DNA of 64,000 bases from Pecten maximus (taxonomy: Eukaryota): positions 33,480,001 to 33,544,000 of the forward strand of contig NC_047016.1 of NCBI RefSeq assembly GCF_902652985.1, given 5' to 3'. Under the pieces are notes generated by a model. The model worked only from the letters and a program-made list of their open reading frames with translations. It was not told where the DNA came from and ran no database searches. The translations under genes and the position numbers were made by a program. Below are positions 12,424-41,790 of the stretch, piece by piece (within the stretch, counting starts at the first letter, position 1; each line of letters starts with the position of its first letter).

Positions 12424-12645
12424 TTTTGGTTTGTTTGTGTTTAACGTCTTATTAACAGCCAAGGTCATTTAAGGACGTGCCAGGTTTTGGAGGTGGAGGA
12501 AAGCCGGAGTACCCGGAGAAAAACCACCGGCCTACGGTCAGTACCTGGCAACTGCCCCACGTAGGTTTCGAACTCGCAACCCAGAGGTGGAGGGCTAGTG
12601 ATAAAGTGTCGGGACACCTTAACCACTCGGCCACCGCGGCCCCTG
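12424..12645 (-). mobile_element. Full-length tRNA-derived SINE (V-domain type) with 9-bp TSD
   Basis: On the minus strand: GGGGCCGCGGTGGCCGAGTGGTTAAGG (A box), GAGTTCGAAACC (B box), core TCTCCGGGTACTCCGGCTTTCCTCCAC, and a tail ending ACAAACAAACCAAA. TSD AATGTATAC at 12415-12423 and 12646-12654. Confidence 0.88.
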
Positions 12646-12823
12646 AATGTATACAATGTCATGTAAACCGTATCAGATACTCACTCTACCTAGACTAATG
12701 TTTGTCAATAATATTGTTCATTAGTGGATTTCTCATAGTTTATGATTTATATATACCAGATACTGTCTGTTTACATCAATCGTCAGAATATTAATATTAA
12801 TATGTTCACAGGTAAATGATAGC

Positions 12824-14467
12824 ATGGTTTGGCGTCCGTTTATACGACATTTGACCCAGTCCAGTGTCCGTCTAAATGACCAGTGTGGGAGACTCAACAG
12901 TACGTGGACAGTGGGCATCCTTGTCCTGTTTGCGGTGTTGACGTTTTTCATCCAGATTCCCTATGACGATGCAGTCAGCTGTTGGACACCCACTGATTTC
13001 ACTTACGCATTGATAGTATATACAAACAAAATATGTAGCCACTCTGGTGTCCATTATCTGCCTGTGACCAAGGATATTCCGAATATGGGACACACGGGAC
13101 GAGATGCATTGCAGTTCAAATGGCGATGGCTACCACTTATCCTCCTCGTGCAAGCACTGCTGTTCAAACTTCCTGATATTGTCCTATCGGTAGGACAGGG
13201 TCTATTGGGATTCAGGTTTACCAAGATATCAGGACTTACAGATGGCTACGAGACACTTAATATGGCCGACCGAACCATAATGGGGAGACAAGTTGGAAGG
13301 CATTTGAAGAGCTGGATAGACTCGACTGTATCGAAAGGTTGTCCATGGGGATGGCTGACCTTGCTCATTCTCTTCACCAAACTTCTATACTTCATCAACA
13401 TCATCACACAATTATCTGTCATGGATGGTATTCTGAAATCTGATAACCAGTCTTCTTTTGGAAGACAAATGTTTGATAACATTATCGGGGGAAATCAAAG
13501 CGAATTTCATACATTTGATTCTCCATTCAGCCGCATAACGTTGTGTTCTTTTCAAATTAATCAGCTGCAAGCATTACAAAGATGGACCGTGCAGTGTATC
13601 CATAATAACATAGCATACTACGAGATGATTATGTGTTTCCTATGGCTGTGGTTCGTTGTGGTATCGGTAATAACTACGACCAGTGGATTAGTACAGAGTT
13701 TAACAGTAATAATGCCAGTCTTTAGGAACCGGTAAGTAAACTGATGGCTTGTTATCAGGTTAGACATGTAAATATTGGTCAATATGGTGCCGCTTCGGAT
13801 AAATATGGAAACGTTTTAAACCCGCCCCCTTCCTGCAGAACCAACTGATACCTCCTTCCTGAAGAACCAATTGATCGTATGCCGTCCGCATGTCGTCACA
13901 GTTTAATGCATTATATTTAACCAGTTCCAAGGTAGCATTTACATGTATAATCCATTAATGTTTTCAAAAAAGTTGAACTTGATCCTATAATGAGCTGGGT
14001 TTTTTTTTACATCACGCCTTAATCAACTTTTTTTTTAATTTTTGAATCCTACAAAAAGTTCAACGAACGATCTAAATTGTCATTGTTTTTTTATTTGTTG
14101 TTACAGATACATCAAGAGTTACCTGTATATGTCAAAGGAAGTGTCCCCATCCCCATCAGACAACGATATTGGCAGGTTTGCGGGGTCAGAAATAACAGAG
14201 GACGGTGTGTTTGTATTGAAAGCGATTGGGGAGGCATCATCTGAACACCTGGTCAGGGACGCCGTCATCTATCTGTGGCATTCCACACATGATCAACACA
14301 GCTCTGTTCCTCAGGGACCATCAGAACACGTTGGTCCTCCGTCATACTTACCAGGGTCGTTAGTACCGGGTCAGGCTTACGGGCCAGGAGATACTACATC
14401 ACCCACGCGATACCGAACTCAGACGGGTACTGAGACTGTCCCTCTACCGGCAAACCAACCAAAGTGA
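12824..14467 (+). CDS. Innexin family protein, copy 1 (422 aa; exons 12824-13731 and 14107-14467)
   Basis: Four hydrophobic segments; EL1 Cys pair (VSCWTP...NKIC); WLPLILLVQALLFKLP corresponding to the innexin TM2 W.P..L..QA..F..P motif; EL2 Cys pair (ITLCSF...TVQC); post-TM4 DGVFVL motif. Phase-2 GT-AG intron keeps the frame. Confidence 0.9.
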
Positions 14468-15189
14468 ACATTCCTTAGTGTATTATATACATCAACTTTA
14501 TATCTTATGGTTGTCGCTACATCTCGGTTAATGCATGTATAAGGTCACTGCTTTATAAATACATAAACACTAAAACATTGCACCAATATAATTATATGTT
14601 TGAATCTGGGATGTAATTAATACACTGATGAGCTCTAAGGCTTTATTAATCATGCTTTGCATTTTTATGAGTAGATGTTTGACTTTATTGCTGAAAAAGT
14701 ATATTCTAGACATGCATTTGAAATGTGATCTGATACAAAGATGACACTGACAACCTAGCTATCATATGAAGTATATCTGAATCATGAATAAATGTACATC
14801 GACATAAAGAAAATGGCATATTAACTCTAAAGCTATTAATCTATGCACAATACAGAATGTTGTATCTCTAATTAAGGTATTTTAAAACTAATTTTGCAGA
14901 TTAAGATTTGTGTGGAATGTGGAATGATTTCATCTGGAGTTAACGGATAACGTAGAGGGATATCCTCTCTACCTTCTTTTGTTAAGAAACACTATTTTCT
15001 TTTCACATTAATGACAAAGTGTGAATCATAACATTATGCACCTCTAATCTAATGCTAACTTAAAGAATAGGTGAATTGGTTATTAAGTTATTGAATTATC
15101 ATATGTGGTACTATGAACGTGGAATATAGACAAAACAACAATAAATCTTCGATAAGAAATATATGTCATCACTGAAATCTTAATGGCGA

Positions 15190-15440
15190 AATAGCTTTTG
15201 TTGTACGTTAATTCATTCTAATGTTGTTCCTTAATTCATTCTTATGATGTACGTTGATGCACTCTGATGATGTACGTTAATTCATTCTGATAATGTACTT
15301 TAATTCTGGTAACGTACAGTACGTTAATTAATTCTGATGATGTACGTTAATTCATTCTTATGGTGGACGTTGATTCACTCTGATGATGTATTTTAATTCA
15401 TTCTTATTATATGCTTTAATTCTGATGGTGTATTTTGATT
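15190..15440. repeat. Degenerate ~22-bp tandem repeat (TGATGATGTACGTTAATTCATTC)
   Basis: About 10 imperfect units visible. Confidence 0.7.
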
Positions 15441-16280
15441 AATTGGAACAGACTGAATTTATTAATACATTTATATTTAGAAGTGTTATTCGTTGTAGTG
15501 ATTTTTGTACATTCCTATGATCAGTATCGTCGGAGACCCACGTTTGCTTGCACTACGCTACGCTACAGTACTAATGATACGCGTCAATTAACCGTGGGTG
15601 TCCGACGATGATGCTCAGAGATAAACAGTAGATAGAAAGGCAGCTTTTGGATTAATTGTTACATTACATGTAGTAGTTTGTTGATTTGCGATGGAGTGAG
15701 TGACGTCATAAATAGAAAATTGAATAGATATCAAGAAGGATGAAAGAAGTGTTAATAGTGGGGTTTTTTTCTCACTTTTGGCGTATACTGCATATATTAC
15801 TAAATTCATATTTCGCTGACCTTATGTAACGTTTTAGCCCACATAAATCTAAATAAAAGCGGTAAATCAGGGCATGTGTTACGTATGTTAATACATTTAC
15901 TATTGATTTGTTTTAAATATTGCACATTTTGTTGTATGATTAATATTGGGTTTGGTGGCGGCGACACGTGTTACTAAATCGGAGAAATATAAAGTGATAA
16001 CGAATGATGTCCAAAGGGGGTAATGGACGATTGTTGATGTCTTGAGAAATGGACCTTTGTCAAAGAAAATAATTGACCTAATTCGCATGTGGGAAAATAT
16101 TGCAATAAAACTAAGTAGCATCAACAAATTTGAACATTTAAAAATATATTTATTTTTTTAGATGTTGTTATCGATAACATCAAATGCATATGTATTTTAA
16201 GGAAAACCATAGTCATCTACTGACAAAAGTGACCGATGAGGTTTTTTTTTTTTTTTTTTTTTTGTGGTTTTTTAATATAG

Positions 16281-17941
16281 AAGGCAGTAAAGATGAATTT
16301 GTACTGGGAAGTCTGGAAATTGGTGTTATAAAGTCACAATTGTTTCTCAGGTCATATCTGACATCTTTATTAACTGTATAAGGTAGAATTTTTATTTTAG
16401 TAGGAAACCCAGGGTGACACAATTGTTTTGTTTCGTAAAGTTACGGTATCCTTCTTTTTCTCTTGTCTGAAAGTTTGTCTAATCCTGATTCAAAATACAA
16501 GTACATAATTAATTGCTGTCATAGCAGTGAAGATCAATGATAATATGGGCGGCTTCACATTGACATTTTTTAGCATTCATTTAGTGTACATCTATTCCAT
16601 AATTCATCAAAATAATGATAAAAAAGGTAAAATAAAACAGTTGCTTTTTTTAAACAGCGTTTCTTATATTCAGATATATTATTCACTTAGTGTCAACTAG
16701 TGGCAATATGCATGGCCATTTACTATTCAAATGACAACTTGAATTGTCATCTACCTTAATTAAAGTTAATTGAACTTAAAAAAGTACAATAGTAAAATAT
16801 TTAAGTATAACATTCACACATATCAATGTTTGGTAAAATACAAAATTGATTATTTTAATTGTATTAAAAGACTACAAATGCAATAGATAAGACATTTACA
16901 GTAACAAAGGATACAAGAAAAACAACTCTTGGTAGAGTATTTGAAGTAGCAGTATCAACTTCTAGTTATCGTTCTTCTCCCGTGGACTGTTTGGATCTAT
17001 TGGCCTGTCTATGTCGTCATTTCCGGTGGTTATTTAGGTCATTTCGAGACCGATACATACTAATACTATCATTTTGACTATTCCCTCGAAACGCTAAGGT
17101 AAGTGATGTTTAACAAGCAGATGCTTAACTTTAAAAAGTTTATAAAAGTAACAATCCACTTAGTGGCCTTAAAAGCCTATTTTATGCATTCTTCAAATAA
17201 GCATCTGATCGTTATGATGCGATTATTTTCTTATTCTTTTCTCTATTTTTTAATAAAAAAAAATCACACTCAGGAGTAGCACACGTACCCGTGATGAAAA
17301 CAACGTACTAAGCGTTATGTATCTCGGAAATTTCAACCGCTCGTGAATATACCATAGCAACATTATATTTTAAGTTATTAATTGAAAAGGCATATCCGAC
17401 ATTGACATTTAGGTACCGTTTTCTGCTTGTTTTGTTGTGAAACTATTAAGTAGACATAAGTATCAGAAATACAATACAAAATTGATTTAAATGACCATAG
17501 GTGCTTTGCACGTATATAAGTCCAAGACCCATTATGTCTATAATCGGTCTTGGACTTATAAACGTGCAAAGCACCTATGAAATAAGGAAGTAACATGATG
17601 TAGGATCCTATAGGCTATACGATACAGGTTTTAACTCTTCTGTCTTTCAAGATACAGACTGATAAACTGTTGTAGGTTTATAATATTATGGTATTTATAT
17701 TAGCAGACATTCTGTGTTATTTTATCAAAAACTTCTTTTTAGACTTAACAATTCTGTAAATCTAAAAAACAATGATCGTGAGTGCGAGGCCCGGTCAGGG
17801 CATAAATCATATTTTTTCCCTTTCATTTGTGTAAATATGTTACTATTATGTATCTATGTGCGAGATATCCCGTTAGAAACAATTTTGACTTTATAACACC
17901 AATTCCTAGATTTCCCAGTACAAATTCATCTTTACTGCCTT
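16281..17941. repeat. Pair of ~68-bp inverted repeats (16281-16348 and 17875-17941)
   Basis: AAGGCAGTAAAGATGAATTTGTACTGGGAAGTCTGGAAATTGGTGTTATAAAGTCACAATTGTTTCT and its near-perfect reverse complement. Confidence 0.75.
16921..17098 (+). promoter_or_regulatory. Putative non-coding first exon/TSS region of innexin copy 2
   Basis: Conserved ACAACTCTTG...AGTTATCGTTCTTCT...TTTAGGTCATT...GCTAAG|GTAAG, also found upstream of copies 3 and 4. Confidence 0.55.
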
Positions 17942-18872
17942 GCAATTGTACGCTACGCTCCTTGAATAAGGTATGGTACTATGTATATCTTATTATTAGC
18001 ACAATGTATCATATGCAATATGTGTTTATCCGAAGGTAAAGGTTTTGAACTTATCATATAGGTCAAGGTAATTGGGTCAAATATCAAGGTCATTTGGGTC
18101 AAATGTTCAAGGATACATTTGATCTCTGAAAATTATCCTGACTTTTAGTATGCGGTTTAGGTTAAGATAAATCACATTTAAGCAGTTTACTTCTAGTAAA
18201 ATGTTTATCCGTTTATAGATTTTTTTTGACACCTCAAAACCCTACTTTTCACATAACGGATATATTTGAAATCATAAAATGAACTTTAAGACTTGAAAAG
18301 TACTTTTAAAACAACAGCAAAGATGAAGGTAAATATCACATTTTTGTTGCAGAAAGTGACCACGAAAAAAAATAGCTTCCATTTTGTTATATTTTAAGAT
18401 ATCGGAAATGAAAAAATAGAAACGCCCTATGTTATGCTGTCAAATGCATAGTCGCTTAAACTGTACATTGCCGCAGGCTCAAACTTTTGACCGGTCTGTT
18501 ATTAACCCTGATATCTCTTAACAGGTGACCTACCGTTTTAGTGGACTACCAAAGCCACCGCACGAATATTGACCGAATTCGAATGAATTTACCTCTAATC
18601 CCTATTCGATGATTGCATGGTGCCCTAACAAGAAATGCTATTTCCTTTGATACCCAAAATTCGAGAGTTACCATCGTTGGAGGGAGGGGTATATGGTAGG
18701 CCTACATTGTAATCTTAAAATGTATTGATGGAGCAATGATAGTATAGTGTTCAATAAAGTTATTTATGTGTTATATGTTTGAATCTTGACGTAATCACGT
18801 CTTAGAAACTTGTCTGGTTGTAATAGTTTTGTAACTGCTGATGAGTTATTGGTTTTCTCCACAGATAAAACC

Positions 18873-20764
18873 ATGGTTTGGCGTCCATTTGTACGACATT
18901 TGACCCAGTCCAGTGTCCGTCTAAATGACCAGTGTGGGAGACTCAACAGTACATGGACAGTGGGTATCCTTGTCCTGTTTGCGGTGTTGACGTATTGTGT
19001 TCAGTCTTCGCACGACGATTCAGTTTCATGCTGGACACCCACAGATTTCACACATCAAATGACTGTATATGCCAACAAAATATGTTCTGATTCCGGTACC
19101 TACCACGTCCCTTTGTCCGAAGATATTCCGATTAGTCCACATTTAAGAGATACAAAAGTATCTTCAAAAGAGTACAAATGGCGATGGCTTCCTCTCATCC
19201 TCCTCATACAGGCACTGCTGTTCAAACTTCCGGATCTTGTCCTATCTGTAGGACAGGGCCTAGTGGGATTCAGATTTACAAAGATATCAGGACTTACAGA
19301 TGGCTACGAGACACTTAATATGGCTGACCGAACCATAATGGGGAGACAAGTTGGACGGTACATGAAGAGCTGGATTGACTCAACTGTATTGAAAGGTTGT
19401 CCATGGGGATGGCTAACACTGCTCTTTCTGTTCACGAAACTTTTGTACTTCATCAACATCGTCACACAAGTATCTGTTATGAATGATCTCCTGAAATCTG
19501 AAAACCACTCTTCTTTTGGTAAACAGGTACTGAATGATATCGTTGGCAATGAAACGGTCGAATGGCATTCGTTTGATTCTTCACCCGACCGCATAGTATT
19601 GTGTGATTTTCCTATCCGGACACTGACCAACGTACAAAGATATACAGTGCAGTGTGCCCTCAATAACACAGATGATATCATGCACTACTACAAGATGATG
19701 TTGTGTTTCCTATGGCTGTGGTTAGTAGGGGTAACAGTTATAACCACGATCAGTGGTGTAATACAGCTACTTACAGTCCTGGTGCCAGTCTTTAGGAAAC
19801 GGTAAGTAAATATACATTTATTTACATTGAGAACATCCGGAACCTTCTTGATAGATTAAGTATAACGTATAAGGAAGGAAGTTACTCTTAATCAATATCT
19901 GCTGAAGACATACAGGAATTTAATTTCTTTTGTGTCTGTTTACTTTTTAACGCGTTTTAATTCCTTTGAATAGTAACTTATGACAGAATAAACACATGAC
20001 TTGACGTCCCTTTGAATTTTGCTACTGGAGATCATTTAATTCATTGAAATTTCTCTCACCAGATTTTGATATTACTTTTGACATATTTTGAGTTTTGGTC
20101 GCCTCATAAAATCATTTAAATCGTTAGCAACACTGATATTTAGAATGAGGAAACAGTTGTATGACGCAGTTTAATGTATTTTTTTTTTTTGCTCTATTAT
20201 GTCTAACTCTCTGAAAAACAATATCCCGCTTTTCATTTGTACAAACGTTTCATTATTTTTTATTTAAGTAACACAAATCATAATGTAAATCGTAGAATCT
20301 CGCTGCAAACACCACACATTTCAATTACATTGTATGTCGGATTCATGTTGCTTATGCTGCTACGCTATATTCATTCTTACAGATACATCAAGAGTTACCT
20401 GTATATGTCAAAGGAAGTGTCCCCATCTCCATCAGACAACGATATTGGCAGGTTTGCGGGGTCAGAAATAACAGAGGACGGTGTGTTCATATTGAAAGCG
20501 ATTGGGGAGGCATCTTCTGAACACCTGGTCAGGGACGCGGTCTTATATCTGTGGCATTCCACACATGATCAACACAGCTCTGTTCCTCAGGGACCACCAG
20601 CACACGGTGGTCCTCCGTCATACTTACCAGCGTCGCATGTACCGGGTCAGACTTACGGGCCAGGAGATGCGGCATCTCCTCCCATGGCTCCTCCACAACA
20701 GGTTAAATATCGACCTCAGACGGGTACTGAGGCTGCCCCTCTGATGACCCACCAACCAATATAA
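18873..20764 (+). CDS. Innexin family protein, copy 2 (436 aa; exons 18873-19801 and 20383-20764)
   Basis: Same motifs and intron position as copy 1. An acceptor ACAG lies just upstream of the ATG at 18873, so the 18810 start in the ORF track is intronic. Confidence 0.9.
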
Positions 20765-23375
20765 AAAGATCGTATTTTGTAACAATTGACATATGGTTAT
20801 AACAGTTTCGTAGAGGCAGAGTGTAGCTTATATCATAGTTATGGGATGATTTACATTATCTCATTATTCATAAACGAAATATATTGTTGATATACGCAGT
20901 CATTTTAATCAATAGATGTACAACTCAATTTATTTAGGTTGTAGTTACCTTTTATATTAATCCAATACCATTACTATATAACCAATGTATAAAATATTCA
21001 ATTTACAGATTATTTACTAGTTACCAATACATACTTTTTAAATCACAAGAATATGCCTTTTACTCAGGGCTAAGTAATACAGTGGCTGAACAAATCACTA
21101 CGTCAATAGGCACCCGAATGATCAAGACAATCATCAAATAACAAACAACAACCGGCTATGCATAGCATGACAAAAACCCAAAATTAAGTTTATGAATATC
21201 ATATACCACATGGCTCACAATTTCCAAGACCGTTATCCTATTGTCACAGAAGTGTAAACAATGATACTCCGTAATATTGTGTATTTGTATCGGCATACGT
21301 GAATATTCAATGCGGTTCAATATATGATACGTGTAGACCGGAGAGGTGAAGAAGCCTGGATGCCTCAAGTCTAAAGAAAGGAGATGATTCTATATACCAA
21401 CTGTGGCAACGTAATGGTGATTAAAACATGACCTTCCGTTTTTGTATTTTATCAAACCTGACTCATGAAAAAAACAAGTATTCACAAATGTTTCTTTTAC
21501 TTCTCATCACTACTGAAAGATAGCTTTCGGATTGATTCTCAAACATATTCGTCATTTTACAATGCAATACATACAAATAACTACATTATACATGTGATTT
21601 TAACACGATGTCTATATTTTGTAAATATTTACATTATTTTACTAACAATATTTTACATGCATGTTTTATATTGAATTTATGAAATAAAGTTAATGGTTTA
21701 CGTTTTGGAATGTGCTTCTTTTCGTTCTGAAATTATAGCTAATATACCGGCCAGTGATATATGCATGATCAAGTGCTTGAATAATGGGGAAATATCATAT
21801 CATTATATTGATACTGATAATTAGACATTCTTCCGAAGAATATTATGCTTTAACATGTAAAATTTGCAAGGCATAATAAGATATAATATTGTCTTTGATA
21901 TGTAATATGGTTTGAAACATGAACATATTCCAAACATCGTCGAAGGAAAAGTTGTCAAGGTTAGTTTGTTCGTTTTTATTGCCCGTATGACTTCGTCAGG
22001 GCATACACTTTTACCCCTATTCCCGCCGTCGCCGCATTAAGGTTATTTTCTTCAGGCCTTCTAATAAAAGCAGAAACGTGCTGCAATGATTATTTCTGGC
22101 ATTTAACATCACTTTGATGTCTCATATCTGCATGTTAATTGATTTTGTGAAGACATTGATAACATTATGGACTTTTAATTCAGGTTAAAGTTTTTTAAAA
22201 ACACTGATTTTTATTGTTACTCTGGGGGGGGGGGGGGGGGAATCTTGAAATTAATTCTTTTTGAGTATAAAACATGTATAAATTTAATTAAATTTCAAGT
22301 TTGATTTTCAAAATCCCTCTCAATAAATGCAACTTTCAAGGGTCCAATATTATCCAATTAAAACAGTATACTTTATTCATGACATATAAGGCTTGTATCA
22401 TTTTTGCTATTGATTTAAAAGGACCAACGTACTCATCGGTTAGAGTTAATCATTGCGTGTTAGTACAGTAAGCTGCAGGTTAAGGTTTGGTTTGTGAAGT
22501 TTCGATTTAATGATGGGTGTCATGTACTTGTAAATTATGTGGGCGCAAGTTTTATCCGGGTGTTGTCATGGTTATGTTTACAATGTTCTTTTCATTATCA
22601 TGGATACATTGTATTTGTGGTGGCAGAAAAAAAAAGAAACAATCATATAACGTTCCTGTTGTGAGTGTAATGGTATATATTACATAAACCGTGTTGTGAC
22701 CGCACATATAATGACACCGAGCAGAGCTGCGATTGGATTTAGATCATATTACTGTTTAAAGTGTTTCGTCAAAAGTTAAAAGAGGCACACGGTTAGAGAC
22801 TTAGGACAGAGAGATGTGGATTTAAGGTAATCGTAAGCCCATATTGGACTTCAAATCAGTGAAATAAAATGCTGTTTTAACTAATGTATACAAAACTAGC
22901 TTTTAGAAGATTACAACAGAAATACACCCAAGTCCGTTAAAGTAACTAAATTTAACGATATGGCGACCCCGATATGTACATTAGCATAGGCTCAAACAAG
23001 TATTCTATTTTGACCACAAGATGGCGGTGACTGAGACTTCAATTTTGTCCTATGACGTGTTCTTAAGAGTGACAGTAACACCCTATAGGATGGGTGGGGT
23101 TATTGACTATGTTTTAATGATATAATTTCGGTTTTTACTGTATAATCAAATACAAATGTATACAATTACGGCGCTTACACCATAGAAATGAACTATAAAA
23201 TTATCTACTTTAAAAGACAAGATAATTGGAAAACATTAGTTGAAATGTAATTAATTTGAAAAGGGAGTATACAGAGTATCGGGCACAAGATAGCCAAGGT
23301 ATAATTAATGTATGTTGCCTGAAGAGAAATGTTAGAAGGACTGAACACTGGTCCAAATACGTTATCTTATAATTC

Positions 23376-23558
23376 GAGTCAAACCTCGTTTTCTCCATGG
23401 CAGTTGGACCGTGAAAAACGTTGAGATATTGAATATTGAGTATTGGAGTAAACCGAATATATTCTATATAGAATTTTTACTGTCAGAAATGATTTTTTAC
23501 TTCGGGTTAAGCAACGTCTTTGCGTTATCAGAGATTGACATAACGAAAGTTGACGGTA
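23376..23558. mobile_element. Degenerate pogo-like MITE remnant; its right half recurs at ~30770-30830 in the paralogous unit
   Basis: GAGTCAAACCTCGTT ... AACGAAAGTTGACGGTA are decayed CAGTC-type TIRs, with TTCG(A/G)GTTAAGC subterminal motifs like the 10274 element. Confidence 0.4.
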
Positions 23559-23663
23559 TAGATAGGAATATCTTATCCAATCATCGCTTATAAAATCCAG
23601 ATATATTGAAGATGATTATTTTCGAATGATTTCAAAGCGTTTCTTTATTAATTTAGTACAGGG

Positions 23664-23795
23664 ACGATAACTCTTGCAGTCAACAACAATCTCTACTCAC
23701 AAAGTTATCGTTCTTCTGCTATTCATGGTTATTTCCGGTATAAGATTTAGGTCATTTATCGGCTGGTACATTTGTATTAGCTTTAAAAAGCTAAG
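23664..23795 (+). promoter_or_regulatory. Putative non-coding first exon/TSS region of innexin copy 3
   Basis: Conserved block ending AAAAAGCTAAG|GTAAG. Confidence 0.55.
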
Positions 23796-24344
23796 GTAAG
23801 CAACACACTACATGTGTATAAGCATGCATTTATTCTATACCATAGCCGATATCAACATAATACTAGCTGATAATACTGATGAACGTGTTAAAAGTAGGAC
23901 ATGTACATTTGATAGGTATTTAACTGAACGCATGAGACTGTAAATAAGTACACAAGTGTTAAATTAATAAGTGTGAGTAAGACTGAGAGACGAAAACCAC
24001 CGACCCGAAAACTTAATTCCCGGAAACGTGTTACTAAATACATCACAACGTCAATTATATCCCTGACAATCCCATAACAGCTATTACAAAATCTCACTTA
24101 GGTATTACAAAATAACAATATTGACATGGAGTAATATAAGCCTGATAATATAGTTATATAGCCGTCTGTCTTCGGTTATCGAAAGAATATATTGGTGAGT
24201 ATTTGGCATAAGAATATATCGAAATATGTCTGGAAATTCTAAGCAATATTATTTCAATTATACAATTTATCATATGCTTATCGGTCATATTTCAAAAGAA
24301 TACATCGTTATTTATTCGCGGAGCTATGTTGATCCAGTATTTTA

Positions 24345-24625
24345 CCAAATTATATAAGATATCTTATATATCATACAAGATATATATATGTTTATGAAAT
24401 ATCTTATATGTTTATGAGATATTTTATATGTTTATTAGATATCTTATTTAAAGTTTATAAGATATCTTATATAATATATGAGATATCTCATTAAAGATAT
24501 CAGATATCTTATATCTTTTATAAGACATCTTATATCTTTTATAAGATATCTTATAAACTTTACTTTATAAGATATCTTATATAATATAGAAGATATCTTA
24601 TATATTTTATAAGATATTATATAAT
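24345..24625. repeat. AT-rich ATAAGATATCTTAT tandem/palindromic repeat patch; related patch at 36805-36960
   Basis: Many imperfect copies of taagatatctta. Confidence 0.6.
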
Positions 24626-24896
24626 AAAGGTCATAATTTGTGTGTTTTTTGTACAATTCATTACATATTTAATACCATACAGTAGCACAGTCTGTTAAGA
24701 ATATAGCGGTTTAACAAAATTTAATATCCATTTCAGCAATTGTATCACATCACATATGACACGTACTATTACGTAAATCATAGAATAGCCGAGATGAATA
24801 TCCGAATCTATTTTAATGACATGATAGCAACAGATAGCCCCATAACAAATGCTGTTATTTTAGCCTGATTAATGAGTTATTGTTACAGATAAAACC

Positions 24897-26409
24897 ATGG
24901 TTTGGCGTCCATTTGTACGACATTTGACCCAGTCCAGTGTCCGTCTAAATGACCAGTGTGGGAGACTCAACAGTACGTGGACAGTGGGTATCCTTGTCCT
25001 GTTTGCAGTGTTGACGTATGGTTTTCAGTTTTCGCAGGACGATTTAGTTTCGTGTTGGACACCACAACAATTCACACATCAAATGGTTGCATATACCAAC
25101 AGAATTTGTTCTGATACCAGTACCTATTACGTGCCTATGTTCGAGGATATTCCTATTAGACCACATTTAAGGGAAACAAAAGTATCTTCAAAAGAGTTCA
25201 AATGGCGATGGCTTCCTCTCATCCTCCTCATACAGGCACTGCTGTTCAAACTTCCGGATCTTGTCCTATCGGTAGGACAGGGCCTAGTGGGATTCAGATT
25301 TACAAAGATATCAGGACTTACAGATGGCTACGAGACACTTAATATGGCCGACCGAGCCCAAATGGGGAGACAAGTTGGACGGTACATGAAGAGCTGGATT
25401 GACTCCACTGTATTGAAAGGTTGTCCATGGGGATGGCTAACATTGCTATTTCTGTTCACGAAACTTTTGTACTTCATCAACATCGTCACACAAGTATCTG
25501 TTATGAATGGCCTTCTGAAATCTGAAAACCACTCTTCTTTTGGAAAACAGGTACTGAATGATATCGTTGGCAATGAAACGGTCGAATGGCATTCGTTTGA
25601 TTCTTCACCTGACCACATAATAATGTGTGATTTTCAAATCCGATTAATGAGCAACGTACAAAGATATACAGTACAGTGTGTCCTCAGTAACACAGATAAT
25701 ATCATGCACTACTACAAGATGATGTTGAGTTTCCTATGGCTGTGGTTAGTAGGGGTAACAGTTATAACCACGATCAGTGGTGTAATACAGCTACTTACAG
25801 TCCTGGTGCCAGTCTTTAGGAAACGGTAAGTAGAACCTATTTACCTACATTGTAAACATCTGGATCCTTCCTGAAAATATTAAGGTTAATGATTGATATA
25901 TTTGCACGTTATTATGTACGTTTTATATATAAAATAAGTATGATATATCATGATAACATACATACATACATTAATTTGCATTCCTTATGCTTATGTTGCT
26001 ATGCTATATTCGTTCTTACAGATATATCAAGAGTTACCTGTATATGTCAAAGGAAGTGTCCCCATCTCCATCAGACAACGATATTAGCCGATTTGCGGGG
26101 TCAGAAATAACAGAAGACGGTGTGTTCATATTGAAAGCGATTGGGGAGGCATCTTCTGAACACCTGGTCAGGGACGCGGTCATCTACCTGTGGCATTCCA
26201 CACATGATCAACACAGCTCTGTTCCTCAGGGACCACCAGAACACGGTGGTCCTCCACCGTACTTAACCCAGGGGCCGTATGTACCGGGTCAGACCTACGG
26301 GCCAGGAGGGACAGTATTATCTCCTCCTCCAACGGCTCCTCAACAGGTTAGATACCGACCTCAGACGGGTACTGAGGCTGTCCCGCTAATGCCTAATCCG
26401 CCAATGTAA
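24897..26409 (+). CDS. Innexin family protein, copy 3 (438 aa; exons 24897-25825 and 26022-26409)
   Basis: Same motifs and intron position; closest to copy 2 over the first coding exon. Confidence 0.9.
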
Positions 26410-28107
26410 AATACGAGTGTTACAGTTTCGTAGAGACAAACCATAGCTTGCTTAACGCGAATAAAGTAATCATAAATGTTGTTGTTAATAATATTGATAC
26501 TAAGTCATTTTAATCAATCCAAGTGTTATGGTGTAGTCAAGGTTGTATGAGTGTGTAACCAGTACTACATAGCCAATGAATAAAAGTTACCAGTACAAAA
26601 ACATTCAATCTCTTCTACCCAGAACTTAATAACACAATGACTGAAAAAAATACTCCATAAATTGGCACACAAAGGATCAAAATAATTACCAAGTAACAAG
26701 GTACTATGCATAAAACGACAAAACCAAAAAACAGTTGTGTGAATATAATGTACCACGTGGTTCTAAGTTTCTCAGACTGTTATCCAATTCGAATAGTGTT
26801 TAAACATCAATAATCGTTAAAATTTGTATTGGAATTCCCGAATGATATATTTGACGGTACAATATATAATACATTCAGGCCAGAGGGGTATAGAAAGCTG
26901 ATGGATGCATTAAATCAAGGAGAAAGGAGATAATTACAGTTCTATATTCCAGCATATGTCTGAAATGAGATAATCTTGAAATTGTGATTCCAATATTGAC
27001 TTCCGTTTTTGTTTCATTTCGAACCTGACTCGGAAAATACGAATTGTTTACAAAATATTATATTTCTTTCACTTATTAGCACTGCTGAATATTTGTATTC
27101 TTACTGAATCTCAAACAAATTCGCCATTTTTTTCAAACATTTGGTATACATTTTAAAACAATTGAATATATATTATGTACTACAGTATACAAAGTACATG
27201 ACTATAAAATACTGTTGTTTGCCTTTTGTGATTTTATCACGAAATGTGTATGTTTTGTAAATATCTACAATGTTTTGCTAACAATACTGTGCATGTACAT
27301 GAATGTTTTATATTTAATTGATAAAATAAACTTTAGATTTCACTTTTTAGAAATTAATTCCTTGTGTTACTTTTCTTTCTGGAATTTTAGCAAATATACA
27401 GCCCAGTCATATGTGCATGATCCAGTATTTACATAACAGAAAAAGATCTATATATATATATATATATATATTATAACTGAAGATTTTCCCGAAGAATGTG
27501 AAACTGACATATGTTGACTCCGCAATTAAGGTTTATATTTTACACTTTAAAGTTTACTTAGTTATGGACTTATTCCTTTACTCCGATTCCATCCATCCGT
27601 CCGGCACCACAATTTTGATCAAAGATTTCAGCAAGACGTTTAGGCCTACTATTGAAAGAAAACACTTCTGAAATTTTAGCTTCTAGCAATTAATATCACT
27701 TTGAGGTTTCATGCTTGATAGGAATGAATTTTCTGAAATTTAGTAACAGCATTAGGGACTTTAAATATAAGTTATAGTTGTTTTGTGGACACTCTATTGA
27801 TATAAGATAGTATTGCAATGATGCGATTAGTATTCTAACAAAGTGGTAGAACATTGATTTTGATACATTAAAAACTTAAAAAGTTTTAGTTTGAATTTCA
27901 GAAATACTTTCTATCAACTTTCAAGGGGCTAAAATCATCTTATTAAAATAAAACTGGTTCAGCATATATACTTTATTCGTGATTCATGACACATATGACA
28001 TATTGTTTACTATTGAGCTAAAAGGAAACACTGTCTGTGGTAAAGTGAGCTGCTAGAAACAACCAAGAAAATAATGGTTTTACGGCATGTTGTATGGCTT
28101 TAGACCC

Positions 28108-29649
28108 ATTACACAAACTGTGTTATGACCACACATATTATGACACCACATTACACAAACTGTGTTATGACCACACATATTATGACACCACATTGCACAA
28201 ACTGTGTTATGACCACACATATTATGACACCACATTACACAAACTGTGTTATGACCACTCATATTATGACACCACATTGCACAAACTGTGTTATGACCAC
28301 ATATATTATGACACCACATTGCACAAACTGTGTTATGACCACACATATTATGACACCACATTGCACAAACTGTGTTATGACCACACATATTATGACACCA
28401 CATTACACAAACTGTGTTATGACCACACATATAATGACACCACATTACACAAACTGTGTTATGACCACACATATATGACACCACATTACACAAACTGTGT
28501 TATGACCACACATATTATGACACCACATTACACAAACTGTGTTATGACCACACATTATGACACCACATTACACAAACTGTGTTATGACCACACATATTAT
28601 GACACCACAATGCACAAACTGTGTTATGACCACACATATTATGACACCACATTGCACAAACTGTGTTATGACCACACATATTATGACACCACATTGCACA
28701 AACTGTGTTATGACCACACATATTATGACACCACATTGCACAAACTGTGTTATGACCACACATATTATGACACCACATTGCACAAACTGTGTTATGACCA
28801 CACATATAATGACAACACATTACACAAACCGTGGTATGACCACACATATAATGACAACACATTACACAAACCGTGGTATGACCACACATATAATGACATC
28901 CATTACACAAACCGTGTTATGATCACACATATTATGACAACACATTACACAAACCGTGTTATGACCACACATATAATGACAACACAATACACAAACCGTG
29001 GTATGACCACACATATAATGACATCCATTACACAAACCGTGTTATGATCACACATATAATGACAACACATTACACAAACCTTGGTATGACCACACATATA
29101 ATGACAACACATTACACAAACCGTGTTATGACCACACATATAATGACACCACATTAACCAAACCGTGTTATGACCACACATATAATGACAACACAATACA
29201 CAAACCGTGGTATGACCACACATATAATGACAACACATTACACAAACCTTGGTATGACCACACATATAATGACACCACATTAACCAAACCGTGTTATGAC
29301 CACACATATAATGACAACACAATACACAAACCGTGGTATGACCACACATATAATGACACCACATTAAACAAACCGTGTTATGACCACACATATAATGACA
29401 CCACATTAACCAAACCGTGTTATGACCACACATATAATGACAACACAATACACAAACCGTGGTATGACCACACATATAATGACAACACATTACACAAACC
29501 TTGGTATGACCACACATATAATGACAACACATTACACAAACCGTGATATGACCACACATATAATGACATCCATTACACAAACCGTGTTATGACCACACAT
29601 ATAATGACACCACATTACACAAACCGTGTTATGACCACACACATATAAT
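28108..29649. repeat. 42-bp minisatellite, ~36 units (CATTACACAAACTGTGTTATGACCACACATATTATGACACCA)
   Basis: Direct tandem repetition; the 14-aa periodicity in the spurious ORFs confirms the 42-nt period. Confidence 0.97.
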
Positions 29650-29795
29650 GGTAGCAGCGATGTTATTGAATATTGAATCATACTACCGTTTAAATTACTT
29701 TTTTCATTTCATCGACGCTCGGAAAATATAAAAACAAACATAGATTTTAGCCTCGTTATATATCTCTCATATAAAAGAATAACCCAATTAAGATA

Positions 29796-30201
29796 CGAGG
29801 GCTGGTTGATAAGTGTTGAGCCTGGTATTGGAGGATTTAAATTTTGCCGGACATAGTGCATTACTTTTCAACATAATCCCCATCAATATTTATATACTTC
29901 TGCTAGCGATGTTTAAGGGCCTCAATGCCACTTTTATAGAACTCCTTGGCTGTTCAGAAAGTCATCCACTGCATGTAAGGGTTAGGGTTAGGGTGCAGGA
30001 AATAGCTATTTTCCCTAACCAATTTTCTCCATTTTGCAAAAGCCGTTTGTCTTGTTTGCTGTAGAGTGCTTCCTCGTCGATATAAACTAGACCAGTCCTT
30101 GGGTACACGGCCTTATATAGAAAGATAATAGCAGGACTTAAAACTAACATCCTTGAGTACCTCCTTCAATACCGGGCTCACAACCTACCAATCAGTCCTG
30201 G
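29796..30201 (-). mobile_element. Internally deleted mariner element retaining TIRs and the transposase C-terminus
   Basis: TA-flanked imperfect ~40-bp TIRs (CGAGGGCTGGTTGATAAGTGTTGAGCCTGGTATTGGAGGA / TCCTTCAATACCGGGCTCACAACCTACCAATCAGTCCTGG). Minus strand ~29862-29945 reads EFYKSGIEALKHR*QKYINIDGDYVEK*, matching the mariner transposase C-terminal FY..GI..L..RW.KC....GDY motif. Confidence 0.8.
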
Positions 30202-30939
30202 TATGATATTCATTACAAGAACTCAAAGCAATTTTAAGAAAGGTGAATTTTCCCCTGTCTGATTGTACTACAAGGGTTCTCTTAACACGTTTTCTGCACC
30301 CATGAAACAGAATATGTCTTGGCAAAGACCAGCTACCCTTAGTAGTTAATTGATGTCAGGAAAGAAAACAATTTTTTTTATTTTTTTATTTATTTATTTA
30401 TTTATTATTATATTTTTTTTTTGAAAATTACAGGGATATAACAATTTATAACAATAAAATTTGCTAAAATGAAAAACTAACCTTTTTTATGTTTTATCCA
30501 CAAGATTGCAGTAACTGTGACTTCAATTTTGTTTTATCCACAATATAGCGGTAACTGACTTCAATTTTGCCATGACATTGCAGAGACTGAGAGTGAAGTA
30601 TCGGAGATGGATGGATTTTTTTCACCAAATAAATCTCAATTTAAGCATGTAGTTTCGGTATTTACTGTATGACCAAACCTAAAATTGCGTCGCTTACACC
30701 ATAACGGAAATAGTTATAAGTGATATGCCGGATACATTTTATACATAATTTGTACTGTCGAAACTGAATGTTTACTTCGAGTTAAGCAATGCCTTCGGGT
30801 TATCAAAGTTCAGATAACGAAGTTTGTCTGCTTAAATCTAGCCCAATCATCGCTTATCAAATCGGGATTAATCCAGATATATTGGAGGTGTTGTTTTAAA
30901 CATTATTTCAAAGCGTTTCTTTATTCGTTTAGTAAAAGG

Positions 30940-31525
30940 ACGACAACTCTTGGAGTCAATAACAATATTCTCACATAGTTATCGTTCTTCTTCTATTCAT
31001 GATTATTTACGGTATCAGATTTAGGTCATTGGACTAAGACCACAATTAGCTTCGCTATATGTTTCATTGTAACATTAAAATTCATAATAAATTCCCAAAA
31101 TCTCATATGCAACTTTCCATCTCACCTGGCCAAGACCAACATCTGAGAAGCAAAATATAAAAGTTTCAACCCAGCATGTTGGGCATTTTCTGGAGATAGC
31201 TGTCAAAATGTGTCACCAACGTGGATTATATACATCCGGGTCAGGGGTAGAGGTCAAATCAGGACTCATCACACAGGGTCCTGGAGCACATAATAAATGA
31301 TCTATATTATTATTTTACATCACAAAACCTAGATTGACATCTCTTCTATAAATTCACATTAAATTCATCAACAAAAATCAAGTTCAAAGAGGTATTTGAT
31401 TTGTTTTCCTGAAATACATACATTTTTGAGGGGACTTCATTCGTGGGGCCTGAACCCGGAAGTACTTAATTGTGGTCTCAGTCCTATTATTGCAACTGGT
31501 ACATATGTTTAAGAAAAAAGCTAAG
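30940..31525 (+). promoter_or_regulatory. Putative non-coding first exon of innexin copy 4, interrupted by a MITE
   Basis: The conserved block to TTAGGTCATT (31030) resumes at CTGGTACAT...AAAAAGCTAAG|GTGAG (31496-31530). Confidence 0.55.
31031..31484. mobile_element. MITE with 18-bp TIRs
   Basis: GGACTAAGACCACAATTA ... TAATTGTGGTCTCAGTCC (one mismatch). Absent from the paralogous site at ~23755. TSD ambiguous. Confidence 0.8.
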
Positions 31526-32960
31526 GTGAGCCATCGAACACTACCTGTATACGATGTATAAGCATGCATCTAATCTATAGTATATCCGAAGATATCACCA
31601 TAACATCAGCTAACAATATTACTGAACGTGTTAAAAGAACGCATGATACTATAAATAGTTACACAAGTGTCAAGCTGATAAGTGTACGTAGGACTGTGAG
31701 AGATGAAACCACCGACCCGAATACAGTACCCTCGGCAATGTGTTACTAACCTACATCACAACGTCAATTACATCCATGACAATCCCATAACAGCTATTAC
31801 AAATACTCTCTTTGGTTTTGGAAATAATAAGAATGACGTTGCCTACAATAATTATATTTCAACATACTGAAAACGGCCTGGTCATATACACGTAACATAT
31901 CGTTTTAAAACTTTCTGTCTTGAAGTTCGGTTATCGAAAGACGCATTTGTACGTGTTTTGAATACGAATATATCGAAATATGTCCGGAAATGGAATGATT
32001 TAATTTCAATTATGCAATTTATCATAGTTTTATCAATTACATTCATAAGAATTCCTGTATGGCAACAACTGTAAAGTTAAAATCAACTTTTTTCATTTGA
32101 CTAAAAATGCTAATCAAGTCATCAATGTCGATTATTTAATTTGAACAATAAGCAATCAATGAAACGATTAGATGTCAAGTAGAAAAACAGATTGTCGATC
32201 AAAGTATAATGTTCTCAGATAATAACTCGACAAACACCAATACTATAAGGATGAAAAGTACTGAAGATATATGATAGTAAACACTTCCTTTATACAGCTA
32301 GTACTTAAATCTTGCGAGAAGTAACGCTACGTAATTATAACATTACTGATACGAGATTATCTGATTGTGTTACATTTGGTCTATTTCGAGTTTTGTTTTT
32401 GATCGCCTGCGTCCTATCATCAACACTTCAGGCCCTTAATATTTTTCCCATCTTTAAGTTGTATTTTGTATTTCTAAATATGAATGCTACAATCTACTTA
32501 ATGTCATAGTTTCCTCAGGGTACAAAATAAATGTTTGAATTATACCTATTTACATCAATGTAAATTTTGTTAGGCCCTTAACATATCTGGCGAGTGGACG
32601 AAACAACTGTATGGTGAAGTTTAGATAATATTGGTTCTAATGTTTCTAACTCTTAATTTGTTTCAAAGGTGCTTATACAAATGTATATTGTGTCTTTTGT
32701 ATAATCATTTGAATACCTAATATGATAACACTGTCTGACAAAAAACCAAGGGAACTTTGTTTACCGTATCAAACATACCTTTCAAAATTTCATTTTACAT
32801 ATCGAAATTTGAAGTCAACCATAAAATAGCCGAGATGAAAAGATATATATGAAGAAAAACACACGAATCTGTTTTAGTGGCATGATAGCAGCAAAGAACA
32901 TACAAAATTACTGTAATTGTAATCTTGATCTATGAGTGAGTTATTTGTATAGATACAACC

Positions 32961-34533
32961 ATGGTTTGGCGTCCTTTTGTACGACATTCAAATCTCCGTC
33001 TAAATGACCAGTGTGGGAGACTCCACAGTACATGGACAGTGGGCATCCTTGTCCTGTTTGCGGTGTTGACGTTTCACATCCAGATTACCTACGAACCTGT
33101 AAGCTTCTGGACGACTGGAGAATATATAGAAACAATGAGCAAATATGTCCATCAAATATATTCCCGATACGGAACATACGGAAAAAGAAACAATAAAGTT
33201 CAAATGGCGATGGCTTCCTCTCATCCTCCTCGTACAGGCATTGCTGTTCAAACTTCCTGACATTGTCTTATCTGTAGGACAGGGCCTAGTGGGATTCAGG
33301 TTTACAAAGATCTCAGGACTTACAGAAGGGTACGAGTTCCTTAATATGGCTGATCGAGCCCAAATGGGGAGACAAGTTGGACGGTACCTGAAGAATTTGA
33401 TAGAATCAACTGTAATGAAAGGATGTCCATGAGGATGGCTGACCCTGCTCTTTCTGTTCACCAAACTTCTGTACTTCATCAATATCGTCACACAATTAGC
33501 TGTTATCGATGGAATTCTGATATCTGAAAACCAATCTTCCTTTGGGAAGCAAATAATTGATGACATTGTTGGCAATGAAACAGTCGAGTGGCGTTCTTTT
33601 GATGCTTTATTCAGCCGTGAAGTTTTGTGTGGTTTTTGGGTCAGACAATATCATAACGTGCGAAATTGGCAGGTGCAGTGTATCCTCAACAATATACCGT
33701 ACTACGAGACAATGCTGTGCTTCATTTGGCTGTGGTTCGTTGTAGTATCGGTTATAACTACGATCAGTGGAATGGTAGATTTCCTTACAGTTGCAGTGCC
33801 CGTCTTTCGGAAGCGGTAAGTCGAATGAATGCATTGCTTCAGAAGCCACGTTCTTTTAAATATAAGTTCATATCTGATATTTAGTAATGACTTGATAATG
33901 ATAACCAGTTGTTACAGGTATGCGGTCTTCAGTGTTATTGATTACCATTGAGAATTAGTGTGTTCTTTATATAGATAGTATTTCGCCATAATTCATTGCG
34001 ATATGGTACCTAATGTAATTTATCTTTTACGTGCTAACTGTATCATAAAGGCATGCTTCATGCTCTGTTACAGATATTCCAAGCGTTATTTGCACTTGTC
34101 AAATGAAATATCCCCATCTCCATCAGACAACAATATTGGCAGGTTTGCAGGATCAGAAATAACAGAGGACGGTGTGTTTATATTGAAAGCGATTGGGCAG
34201 GCATCTTCTGAACACCTGGTCAGGGACGTGGTCATCTATCTGTGGCATTCCACACATGATCAACACAGCTCTGTTCCTCAGGGACCACCTGAACACGGTG
34301 GTCCTCCACCGTACTTAACCCAGTGGTCGTGTGTACCAGGTCAGACTTACGGGCCAGGAGGGACATTAATATCTCCTCCTCCAACGGCTCATCAACAGGT
34401 CAGATACCGACCTCAGACAGGTACTGAGGCTGACCCACTGATGACCAACCAGCAAATGCAAAAATCAATGTTACACTTTCGAAGAGACAAAAAAGCTTGC
34501 TCCAAGCTAATGGGTAATCACAAATGTTGTTGA
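32961..34533 (+). pseudogene. Innexin pseudogene, copy 4 (exons 32961-33815 and 34074-34533)
   Basis: Deletion/frameshift in EL1 (~33170-33200), TGG>TGA nonsense at 33430-33432, both EL1 cysteines lost (VSFWT, QIYS). The frame downstream of the stop is otherwise intact and homologous. Confidence 0.88.
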
Positions 34534-37018: not shown

Positions 37019-37872
37019 ATGCTGTGCTTCATTTGGCTATGGTTTGTGGTGGTATCGGTTATAACTACGATCAGTGGAATAGTAGATTTCCTTACAGTTG
37101 CGGTGCCCGTCTTTCGGAAGCGGTAAGTCGAGTGAATACATTGCTTTAGAAATCACATGTCTTCATATAATTCCATGCCTGATACTAAGTTATAATCGGT
37201 AGCTAAAGGTATGCGGTTTTCAAAGTAATTATCATATTAATGATATTTTACCACGCCTTTATCAGAAAAAACCCCAAACCGATTTAATGTGTGTTTTTCA
37301 TGTAAATAATATTACAACAGAATTCCTTTCGATATGGTTGTTAGTGTCATTTATCATTTGCGTGCAAGCTGTATCATATAGGCACGGTTAAAGTTTTCAG
37401 CTACATCTATTTATCTAACACCATGTTACTAAATAGCGGAGAACATTATTACATGCTGCTGTCTAAGCCAATGTTTTTGTTGTGTTACAGATATTTCAAG
37501 CGTTATTTGCACTTGTCAAATGAAATATCCCCATCTCCATCAGACAACGATATTAGCCGATTTGCAGGATCAGAAATAACAGAGGACGGTGTGTTCATAT
37601 TGAAAGCGATTGGGGAGGCATCTTCTGAACACCTGGTCAGGGACGCGGTCATCTACCTGTGGCATTCCACACATGATCAACACAGCTCTGTTCCTCAGGG
37701 ACCACCAGAACACGGTGGTCCTCCACCGTACTTAACCCAGGGGCCGTATGTACCGGGTCAGACCTACGGGCCAGGAGGGACAGTAGTATCTCCTCCTCCA
37801 ACGGCTCCTCAACAGGTTAGATACCGACCTCAGACGGGTACTGAGGCTGTCCCTTTGATGCCCAATCCCTAA
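37019..37872 (+). pseudogene. 5'-truncated innexin fragment, copy 5 (TM4 37019-37122, intron, last exon 37491-37872)
   Basis: MLCFIWLWFVVVSVITTISGIVDFLTVAVPVFRKR plus GTAAG donor, near-identical to copy 4. No TM1-TM3 or first exon upstream. Confidence 0.85.
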
Positions 37873-40170: not shown

Positions 40171-41790
40171 TTGTTTGTTTGTTCATGTTTTACGGCCCAT
40201 CGACAACTAGGGTCATTTAGGGCCAAACAATATACTAACATGAAATATACTAACATGTGTTATTTTTAAAGTTAAAATCAGATAAAATTTGTCATTTTTA
40301 AAAGCATCCGTATTGTATATTTAGATCATTATGATAAAAAAGTTGGTTAAAAATGGTAAAATATGTATATGTACGAATAGATTATGTGAACTTTGTTATA
40401 TAAATAGAACGTCAAAGACAGTAACGTAGAAGACATCAAAGTCTATAAAATAGATCGATTTCTTTCAAGTAGCTAAATATTGTTTTCGAATCCACGGAAC
40501 TGAAAAGGGTTTTCATATCCGGGACTCGAAAGTATTTATCACGAATGTGCTTGAAATCGGAACATTCTATTAAAAAATGCTCCGCTGTGAATTGACCATC
40601 ACATGCATAACACACCGGTGGATACTCTCGTTTCAAAAGGAACGAATGAGTAGGATATGTGTGCCCGGTACGGAGCCGAGAGAGGACTATTTCCTCTCTA
40701 CGATCCTTCCGACTTGGTTTTGATGTTTTAAGTTTTGGTTGTACAGTACTTTAAAAAGTTTGTTGCTCGTCTCGAGAGACCATTGTTGCTGCCATTTACT
40801 CTGAATGGTAGAACTAATTACAGGTTTGAAATCTGTATATGGTATTTTAATATTTGTTTGTTGCAGATTTAGAGCAAGTTTTGCTTGGCGGTCAACAAGT
40901 TCGTTGCCTTTAATTCCGACATGGCTCGGAATCCAAAGTAATGTTATTTTGCATTTTTTTAAGATACGAGATATTCGTAAAACAAGGTTTTGTATGAGTA
41001 TATTCTTTGGATCTCGTGATTGTAAATTCTGAAGGACAGATAGAGAGTCGGAACAAATTATTGCCTTTCTAATGCGTTGTTCTTCGATATGGTCGAGGGC
41101 CAAATCGATGGCACATGCTTCCGCAGAGAAGATAGAGGCACCATCTGGTAAGCGGATTGAAGAACAATGGTGATCGGAATAGCATGCTGCGGAGACCTTT
41201 ACTCCATCTTTTGAGCCATCAGTGTAGATCTGAACGTGATCGGGAACATCTTTAATGCATTCCCGAAAGCAGGATTTGTGTTCTTCGGGTAATGCACTCG
41301 ATTTTGCCCTCACGTGTAGAGTAAGGTTAATATCAGGTGTTTCGACAAGCCATGGCGGTACATCCGATACGGTGTATTCGCCTATGTTGTCTAAGCTTAT
41401 GTTAAGTTCATGAAGAAAATTCGAAATTCTAATGCCAAATGTTGGTAAGAGTTTTTGGTTTTGAGTGAATATGTTTCGGTATTGTGGATTGACAACAAGA
41501 TCAAAAGCCGGGTTTTTCGGGTTGGATTTCAATTGGGCGGCATATTGAAGCGCAAGTTTTAAAGATGGTTCATTTGCCTCTACATAAAGGTTCTGCACTG
41601 GTGTTGTTCGGAAAGCACCAAGTGCTAGACGTAATCCTTGATTATGGATAGGATCCAACATTTGCAGGTAAGAATTCCGTGCTGATCCATAAACGACGGA
41701 CCCATAGTCGAGTTTTGATCGAATAAGTGCGCTGTAAAGGCGCAAGAGCATTTCACAGTCCGCACCCCAGTCGGTGTGGGATAGTACGTC
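40171..41790 (-). mobile_element. 5'-truncated non-LTR retrotransposon (I/Nimb/Ingi-like): end of RT, RNase H, C-terminal Cys/His motif, 3' UTR and (AAAC)n tail
   Basis: ORF 40687-41751 has RSKLDYG, LRLALGAFRTTP and RNase H motifs YTDGS, SAEACAI, ICSDS, WIPSHVGIKGNELVD. The frameshifted continuation has CYAC...EHFLIEC. 13-bp TSD ATCATCAA(G/T)GTCT at 40158-40170 and 41791-41803. Confidence 0.92.

Follow-up and report, generated by a model that had tools for sequence, protein, structure and literature searches.

Why should neighbouring innexin genes be nearly identical in their core and differ in the loops that face outwards? The question is raised by a tandem innexin array of the scallop Pecten maximus, which lies in a 64,000-nucleotide (nt) stretch of contig NC_047016.1 (NCBI RefSeq assembly GCF_902652985.1, positions 33,480,001 to 33,544,000 of the forward strand; hereafter the window, from whose first letter all coordinates are counted). 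Six-frame translation and self-comparison of the window revealed five related innexin units, all on the + strand, of which three are intact genes and two are broken copies. An initial annotation, made from the letters alone, had described a cluster of four copies with hypervariable extracellular loops; the tandem array is real, but the remnant of a fifth copy outside the annotated range had been missed. The regional divergence within the array is confirmed as a real feature, gene conversion is its very probable cause in the homogenised core, and selection is slightly favoured as what keeps the outer loops distinct.

Regional divergence between the intact copies

Copies 1 to 3 are intact: copy 1 (12824-14467; exons 12824-13731 and 14107-14467) encodes 422 amino acids (aa), copy 2 (18873-20764; exons 18873-19801 and 20383-20764) 436 aa and copy 3 (24897-26409; exons 24897-25825 and 26022-26409) 438 aa. 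All three carry a GT-AG intron at the identical codon, score 131-136 bits against the Pfam Innexin family PF00876 (cut-off 25; E 1e-38 to 1e-39), match protein records labelled 'innexin unc-7-like [Pecten maximus]', and have four transmembrane (TM) helices with two conserved cysteines in each extracellular loop, C53 and C71 of the first loop (EL1) being kept in copy 2.

Between copies 2 and 3, the first 41 residues are identical (0/41), and the 103 residues from the KWRW motif hold two differences, T154A and I155Q, giving 2/99 for the TM2-TM3 segment; in EL1 (aa 42-101; 18996-19175 in copy 2, with counterparts at 25020-25199 in copy 3 and 12947-13117 in copy 1) 19 of 60 residues differ (Fisher p=1e-7 against TM2-TM3, a value that is too small since sites are non-independent under conversion). 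Ten of the 35 residues (238-272) around the cysteine pair of the second extracellular loop (EL2) differ as well. These figures agree with the counts given initially, and the four EL2 motifs quoted with them are all present; TM4, which had been called identical, carries C278S at its start (1/28). The description of the loops as hypervariable holds for EL1 and for the E2 beta-hairpin region (aa 238-270; 19584-19682 in copy 2 and 25608-25706 in copy 3) but not for the first half of EL2 (201-237), which is homogenised (1/37). The Pro-rich C-terminal tail diverges to much the same degree as the loops (17/65). At the nucleotide level, EL1 differs at 31/180 positions, and the hairpin region forms an island of ~100 nt in which 15/99 nt differ, flanked by tracts with 4/111 and 1/120 differences.

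The two other units are broken. Copy 4 (32961-34533), which had been taken for a further loop variant, has an exon 1 of 855 nt, compared with 908, 929 and 929 nt in copies 1, 2 and 3; in the assembly sequence, 41 nt of EL1 that copy 1 has are missing near 33151, a gap that causes a net frameshift, and a TGA stands at 33430-33432. Both EL1 cysteines are lost, C53 having become F and C71 lying inside the gap, and copy 4 thus falls outside the pattern of two cysteines per loop. Copy 5 is a 5'-truncated remnant that comprises the last 104 nt of exon 1 (37019-37122), an intron and exon 2 (37491-37872).

Gene conversion and silent sites

The initial annotation had offered gene conversion that spares the loops as one of two explanations, and silent sites bear it out. 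Four-fold degenerate sites of copies 2 and 3 differ at 9/40 (22%) in the loops versus 6/123 (5%) in the core (p=0.002), and the contrast persists with model-based borders (8/34 versus 7/129). By the method of Nei and Gojobori, the synonymous divergence (dS) of the loops is ~3x that of the core in all three pairs of intact copies. The alignable downstream flanks of copies 2 and 3 differ at 23-29%, and their introns align at the ends only. Because the silent divergence of the loops resembles that of the flanks, the loops are as old as the duplication itself, whereas the core is younger. Core four-fold sites are free to change, as 40/86 of them differ from those of a close paralog that lies 15 Mb off on this contig (near 18.475 Mb; 63% identity in a genome search, with the intron positioned as in the array).

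More direct evidence comes from copy 5. Its exon 1 remnant is copy-4-like (6/104 versus 25/104 differences), as is its intron; in exon 2, the first 94 nt show 13 differences to copy 3 and 5 to copy 4; nt 95-360 of the same exon show 1/266 differences to copy 3 and 16/266 to copy 4, marking a putative conversion tract at 37585-37850 whose counterpart in copy 3 lies at 26116-26381. Judged from these sequences, exon 2 of copy 5 is a mosaic of copies 3 and 4 and direct evidence of exchange.

Trees built from different parts of the protein are consistent with this. Loop trees reject grouping by species for Pecten copies 1-3 (p-AU, from the approximately unbiased test, 0.001), for four Argopecten proteins (0.0007) and for a Ylistrum pair (0.05), whereas core trees do not reject it; the groups were picked after viewing the trees, with one isoform omitted, and P0015 was omitted from the topology test. 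An informative-site scan across copies 1-4 gave one dominant topology, 14|23, with few switches, and its run tests are partly driven by constraint. The array therefore shows the marks of concerted evolution, namely mosaic tracts, trees that depend on the region and a part of the gene whose silent divergence is lower than that of the flanks, and we regard conversion as very probably the cause of the homogenised core. Two results point the other way: the loop topology is not rejected by the core (p-AU 0.22), and GC enrichment of the core is no greater than in control genes. A signature of GC-biased conversion was considered and rejected, since four-fold GC of 0.43-0.48 in the core versus 0.32-0.40 in the loops is set against 0.48 versus 0.43 in controls and 0.51 versus 0.42 in the distant paralog.

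Loop-sparing conversion in innexins appears to be new, whereas the innexin identity of such genes is known, as is conversion of this type in protocadherins and opsins. A literature search in which subscription journals were sparsely covered returned no account of regional conversion in innexins, of this subfamily or of the array. The resemblance to clustered protocadherins (PMC1852091) and red/green opsins (PMC3924837), as those reports describe them, lies in tandem paralogs with regional conversion that spares the part bearing specificity. The proteins are otherwise unrelated; the scallop array lacks a shared constant exon and has three intact genes only, the role of its spared part is putative and, unlike in the opsins, its introns and flanks are not homogenised.

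Selection or passive escape of the outer loops

Diversifying selection was the other explanation put forward, and in the strict sense of a ratio of nonsynonymous to synonymous divergence (dN/dS) above 1 it was not recovered: loop values are 0.51-0.75 with intervals that span 1, and Nei-Gojobori counts alone put the loops at 0.55-0.75 and the core at 0.17-0.27. A mosaic made by conversion alone had been expected to show loop dN/dS well below 1 with dS raised in parallel; dS is indeed raised, yet the dN/dS values do not fall far below 1.

A case for selection can nevertheless be made from which segments are spared. In three paralog sets (Pecten, an Argopecten trio and a Mizuhopecten pair), EL1 (37-90) and residues 235-270 differ while other fast-evolving segments are near-identical. 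Segment 217-234, which adjoins the spared 235-270, has a deep rate of 0.59, yet shows 0/18 differences in Pecten, 0-2/18 in Argopecten and 0/18 in Mizuhopecten. The Mizuhopecten pair differs at 17/59 residues in EL1 and 16/31 in the hairpin region, compared with 0/99 in TM2-TM3 and 0/47 in the tail, and the first half of EL2 contrasts with the hairpin region at p=0.003 in Pecten and <1e-5 in Mizuhopecten. Positions 43, 45, 57, 58, 81, 82 and 262 are variable in all three sets, and variable loop sites overlap among lineages (p 0.006-0.02; 0.02-0.06 on family-variable sites alone). According to the treatment of converting duplicates in PMC3924837, a divergence peak within them is a sign of selection, and selection against conversion would likewise be expected to leave a peak of raised dS. 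Since homogenisation has reached the fast 217-234 but passed over EL1 and the hairpin, and since the pattern recurs in Argopecten and Mizuhopecten, selection that keeps EL1 and the hairpin distinct is suggested; we lean towards it only slightly because tracts make sites non-independent and the sets are few (three), two of them protein-only.

Several results weigh against selection. Loop-only codon models (M1a/M2a and M8a/M8) with their own branch lengths, run on 3, 4 or 5 Pecten sequences and of low power at that size, did not yield a significant class above 1 (p=0.17-0.64) and assigned 53-71% of the loop sites to omega=1. A whole-gene M1a/M2a comparison gave p=0.002, with sites 250 and 252 above 0.9, a result that is confounded because the model assumes a single dS along the gene, which is false given the dS mosaic. 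In Argopecten the hairpin contrast is non-significant (p=0.11-0.25). The argument from spared and homogenised segments rests on the three paralog sets, with Argopecten and Mizuhopecten as protein only; the tail is spared in Pecten copies 2 and 3 without evident reason, so passive sparing may occur, and two of the five copies are broken.

The most serious alternative, which we consider unlikely though far from negligible, is passive escape: with docking lost, the outer face would drift unconstrained, drifted segments would become too different to convert while conserved ones went on converting, and no selection for diversity would be needed. The preponderance of loop sites at omega=1 with no supported class above 1, the equality of loop and flank four-fold divergence, and the N-glycosylation sequons described below, which fit lost docking, all agree with it, as does the decay of two copies in the manner of birth and death; an equivalent process is reported for yeast duplicates in PMC3924837. 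Set against this are the equally fast segments 1-18, 217-234 and 361-378 (and the tail in two genera), which were homogenised while EL1 and 235-270 were spared in all three sets, and the sharply bounded hairpin island of copies 2 and 3 between its near-identical tracts. If the process is passive after all, the array would be a clean case of conversion mimicking positive selection.

A divergent scallop subfamily

We compared the array and its relatives with 120 matches of a conventional innexin query, of which the species-labelled ones are molluscan. These conventional innexins have one of their most conserved parts in the hairpin region (0.03-0.15 where the overall distance is 5-45%) and one of their least conserved in the cytoplasmic loop; the subfamily to which the array belongs inverts this profile, with a conserved cytoplasmic loop and a hairpin that is among the most variable parts on a near-fixed core. 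Loop distance is more than twice the TM2-TM3 distance in 75/76 subfamily pairs versus 4/579 conventional pairs, the pairs being non-independent. Further departures from ordinary innexins are a shorter cytoplasmic loop and altered forms of the YYQW, FPR and LP.N.FNEK motifs seen in the ordinary innexins of this genome.

All 24 of the 24 subfamily proteins form one clade (support 1.0) on a long stem (0.89). Its species-labelled members are all scallops, and ~8 others, at 32-46%, extend it; this range is a lower bound, as the search relied on shared words. Its sister group among mollusc innexin Groups 1-7 (PMC8049302) differed between two trees, the stem being long, and the ESM Atlas returned generic innexin clusters and nothing more specific. 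The single paralog 15 Mb from the array (L001:3153-4775) corresponds to the Mizuhopecten tandem pair (P0009, P0010), in which the contrast between loop and core is strongest. Ordinary innexins at 25-44% were found on C19 and C15, with at least 15 conventional open reading frames (ORFs), of which 15 were extracted. Nearly all consist of one long coding exon; C19 holds three clusters of them and C15 two loci, and L005 and L007b are divergent.

Docked or free channels

An AlphaFold model from a 20-row alignment (predicted local distance difference test, pLDDT, 62) gives E1 a helix (61-73) and E2 two strands (241-249 and 254-263), which makes 250-253 the modelled hairpin tip (19620-19631 in copy 2). 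Its top five structural matches are pannexins, INX-6 and LRRC8A (Z 13.7-15.1); pannexins 1 and 2 (Z 15.1 and 15.0) are tied with Caenorhabditis elegans INX-6 (PDB 5H1Q, PMC5146279; Z 14.6, root-mean-square deviation 6.1, 301 aligned residues), with which the model has in common the four TM helices and four cysteines, C53, C71, C244 and C261 aligning with INX-6 C58, C76, C248 and C265. In INX-6, as described in PMC5146279, the E2 hairpin inserts into a cavity of the opposite hemichannel, formed there by its E1 lobes. The model accordingly puts the spared residues on the outermost face of the channel, whether docked or free.

A plain motif scan revealed an N-glycosylation sequon at aligned positions 209-211 in 24/24 subfamily proteins and in 3/120 conventional ones. 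Most members have a second near 226, and in most the loop sequons number two to four; in copy 2 the EL2 sequons are N211 (NHS) and N226 (NET), at 19503-19556, in the homogenised first half of EL2. Any loop sequon was found in 0/15 conventional ORFs of this genome and 19/120 conventional proteins. Loop sequons are presented in PMC8769644 as widespread in invertebrate innexins and as a mark of unpaired channels, and the mollusc survey of PMC8049302 lists them in Groups 2 and 7; Group 7, by that listing, differs from the subfamily in having them in EL1 rather than EL2. Extracellular sequons also liken the subfamily to pannexins, although vertebrate pannexin loops are highly conserved and these are variable. 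The conserved EL2 sequons hint at unpaired, pannexin-like channels and are a mild argument against docking, and the lost conservation of the hairpin fits a loss of docking. On the other side, seven sequon-bearing innexins form gap junctions (PMC8769644, in the cases it tabulates or cites), and the sequons here precede the hairpin by 18 and 33 residues instead of lying within it. A non-junctional working mode, judged from the predicted protein, is in our view slightly favoured.

The alternative of a docking code, in which the copies would form gap junctions and their EL1 and hairpin variants would set which hemichannels pair, by cell type or by self versus non-self as in clustered protocadherins, appears improbable. 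The spared residues do align with the parts of INX-6 that make the junction (its E2 hairpin tip and E1 lobes), the protocadherin clusters show the same regional conversion (as reported in PMC1852091), and some sequon-bearing innexins still dock (likewise PMC8769644). Against it stand the multiple loop sequons of most members and the conserved hairpin region of conventional innexins, which presumably dock; three genes, moreover, leave little code space, and few loop alleles were seen among 40 of the 149 variant rows. Copies 2 and 3, or the Mizuhopecten pair, are natural loop-swap experiments for the residues that govern docking specificity and for the effect of the EL2 glycan on docking.

A mechanism for the array

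The mechanism that we consider best overall, tentatively and with a likelihood a little short of even, combines a converted core, selection on the outer faces and a mostly unpaired channel. In a tandem array of this divergent scallop subfamily, conversion would keep overwriting the N-terminus, the membrane helices and the cytoplasmic parts, while selection would keep EL1 and the E2 hairpin different from copy to copy. The channel is predicted to be glycosylated, mostly unpaired and large-pored, with EL1 and the hairpin outermost; a common core could let subunits co-assemble and gate alike with differing outer surfaces. An external channel-binder, such as a pathogen protein or toxin, would be the most likely selective agent, which is a guess; if such a ligand drives the pattern, the array would point to an as yet unrecognised contact between a farmed bivalve and a pathogen or toxin.

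A bolder version, in which scallops keep a repertoire of large-pore subunits with a core standardised by conversion and interchangeable faces, some loop types predating the Pecten/Argopecten/Ylistrum split, and in which this diversity either is upheld by an arms race against ligands from pathogens or toxins or serves as a code of cell identity, a protocadherin-like design in a channel family, is speculative and rather unlikely. An immune or self-recognition role, as initially suggested, is unsupported: insect innexin hemichannels act in haemocytes, as noted in a literature listing, and nothing ties the scallop copies to haemocytes.

Assembly and expression

That the copies are uncollapsed haplotypes, an artefact that the ~91% identity of copies 2 and 3 across exon 1 might suggest, was rejected for copies 1-3 and is exceedingly improbable, given introns of five lengths (375, 581, 196, 258 and 368 nt in copies 1-5) that mostly do not align, and two DNA runs from other samples with unique contigs in all 30/30 bins of 12600-26600 at even depth (27-43 in X4, 21-42 in X5), one X4 contig bridging 20571-24368 from the tail of copy 2 towards copy 3.

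An absence of expression from copies 1-3 would have spoken against a functional array; RNA contigs lie on copies 1 and 3, whereas copy 2 is covered at low depth only. In RNA run X10, contigs of copy 1 stop at the splice donor, as do those of copy 3 (depth 63-106), for which a GT..AG joint was seen; a low-depth contig covers copy 2's own EL1 in X14, a run presumed to be RNA. Contig depth is unsuited to ranking expression among the copies. The RNA joint 19800->26021 would at first sight link exon 1 of copy 2 to exon 2 of copy 3; because one side of it is 26 nt of sequence common to both copies, it is taken as the ordinary copy 3 junction. RNA contigs also touch the bin 23341-23807 upstream of copy 3, where a 5' untranslated exon is possible.

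In the contigs of four runs, 40 of the 149 variant rows include a single loop replacement, T57A in copy 1. It corresponds to 12992 A>G, present in three of the four runs, at a site that is among those variable in all three paralog sets. [quoted passage not shown]

Other features of the window

No innexin ORF was found in the 20 kb preceding the window. Non-coding stretches upstream of copies 3 and 4 (23453-24301 and 30728-32052) align at 68-77%. A minisatellite at 28107-29645 (period 42, 37 copies) lies between copies 3 and 4, and two more are found at 57903-58629 (period 25) and 58668-59702 (period 56). A frameshifted ORF fragment of an RNase H-bearing retroelement occupies 40439-41915 on the minus strand. 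Neighbouring exons encode an adenylate kinase-like segment that scores below the cut-off (858-1205, minus strand), a GroES-like alcohol dehydrogenase/quinone reductase (49772-52231, minus strand) and a class V aminotransferase (62799-63101, + strand).

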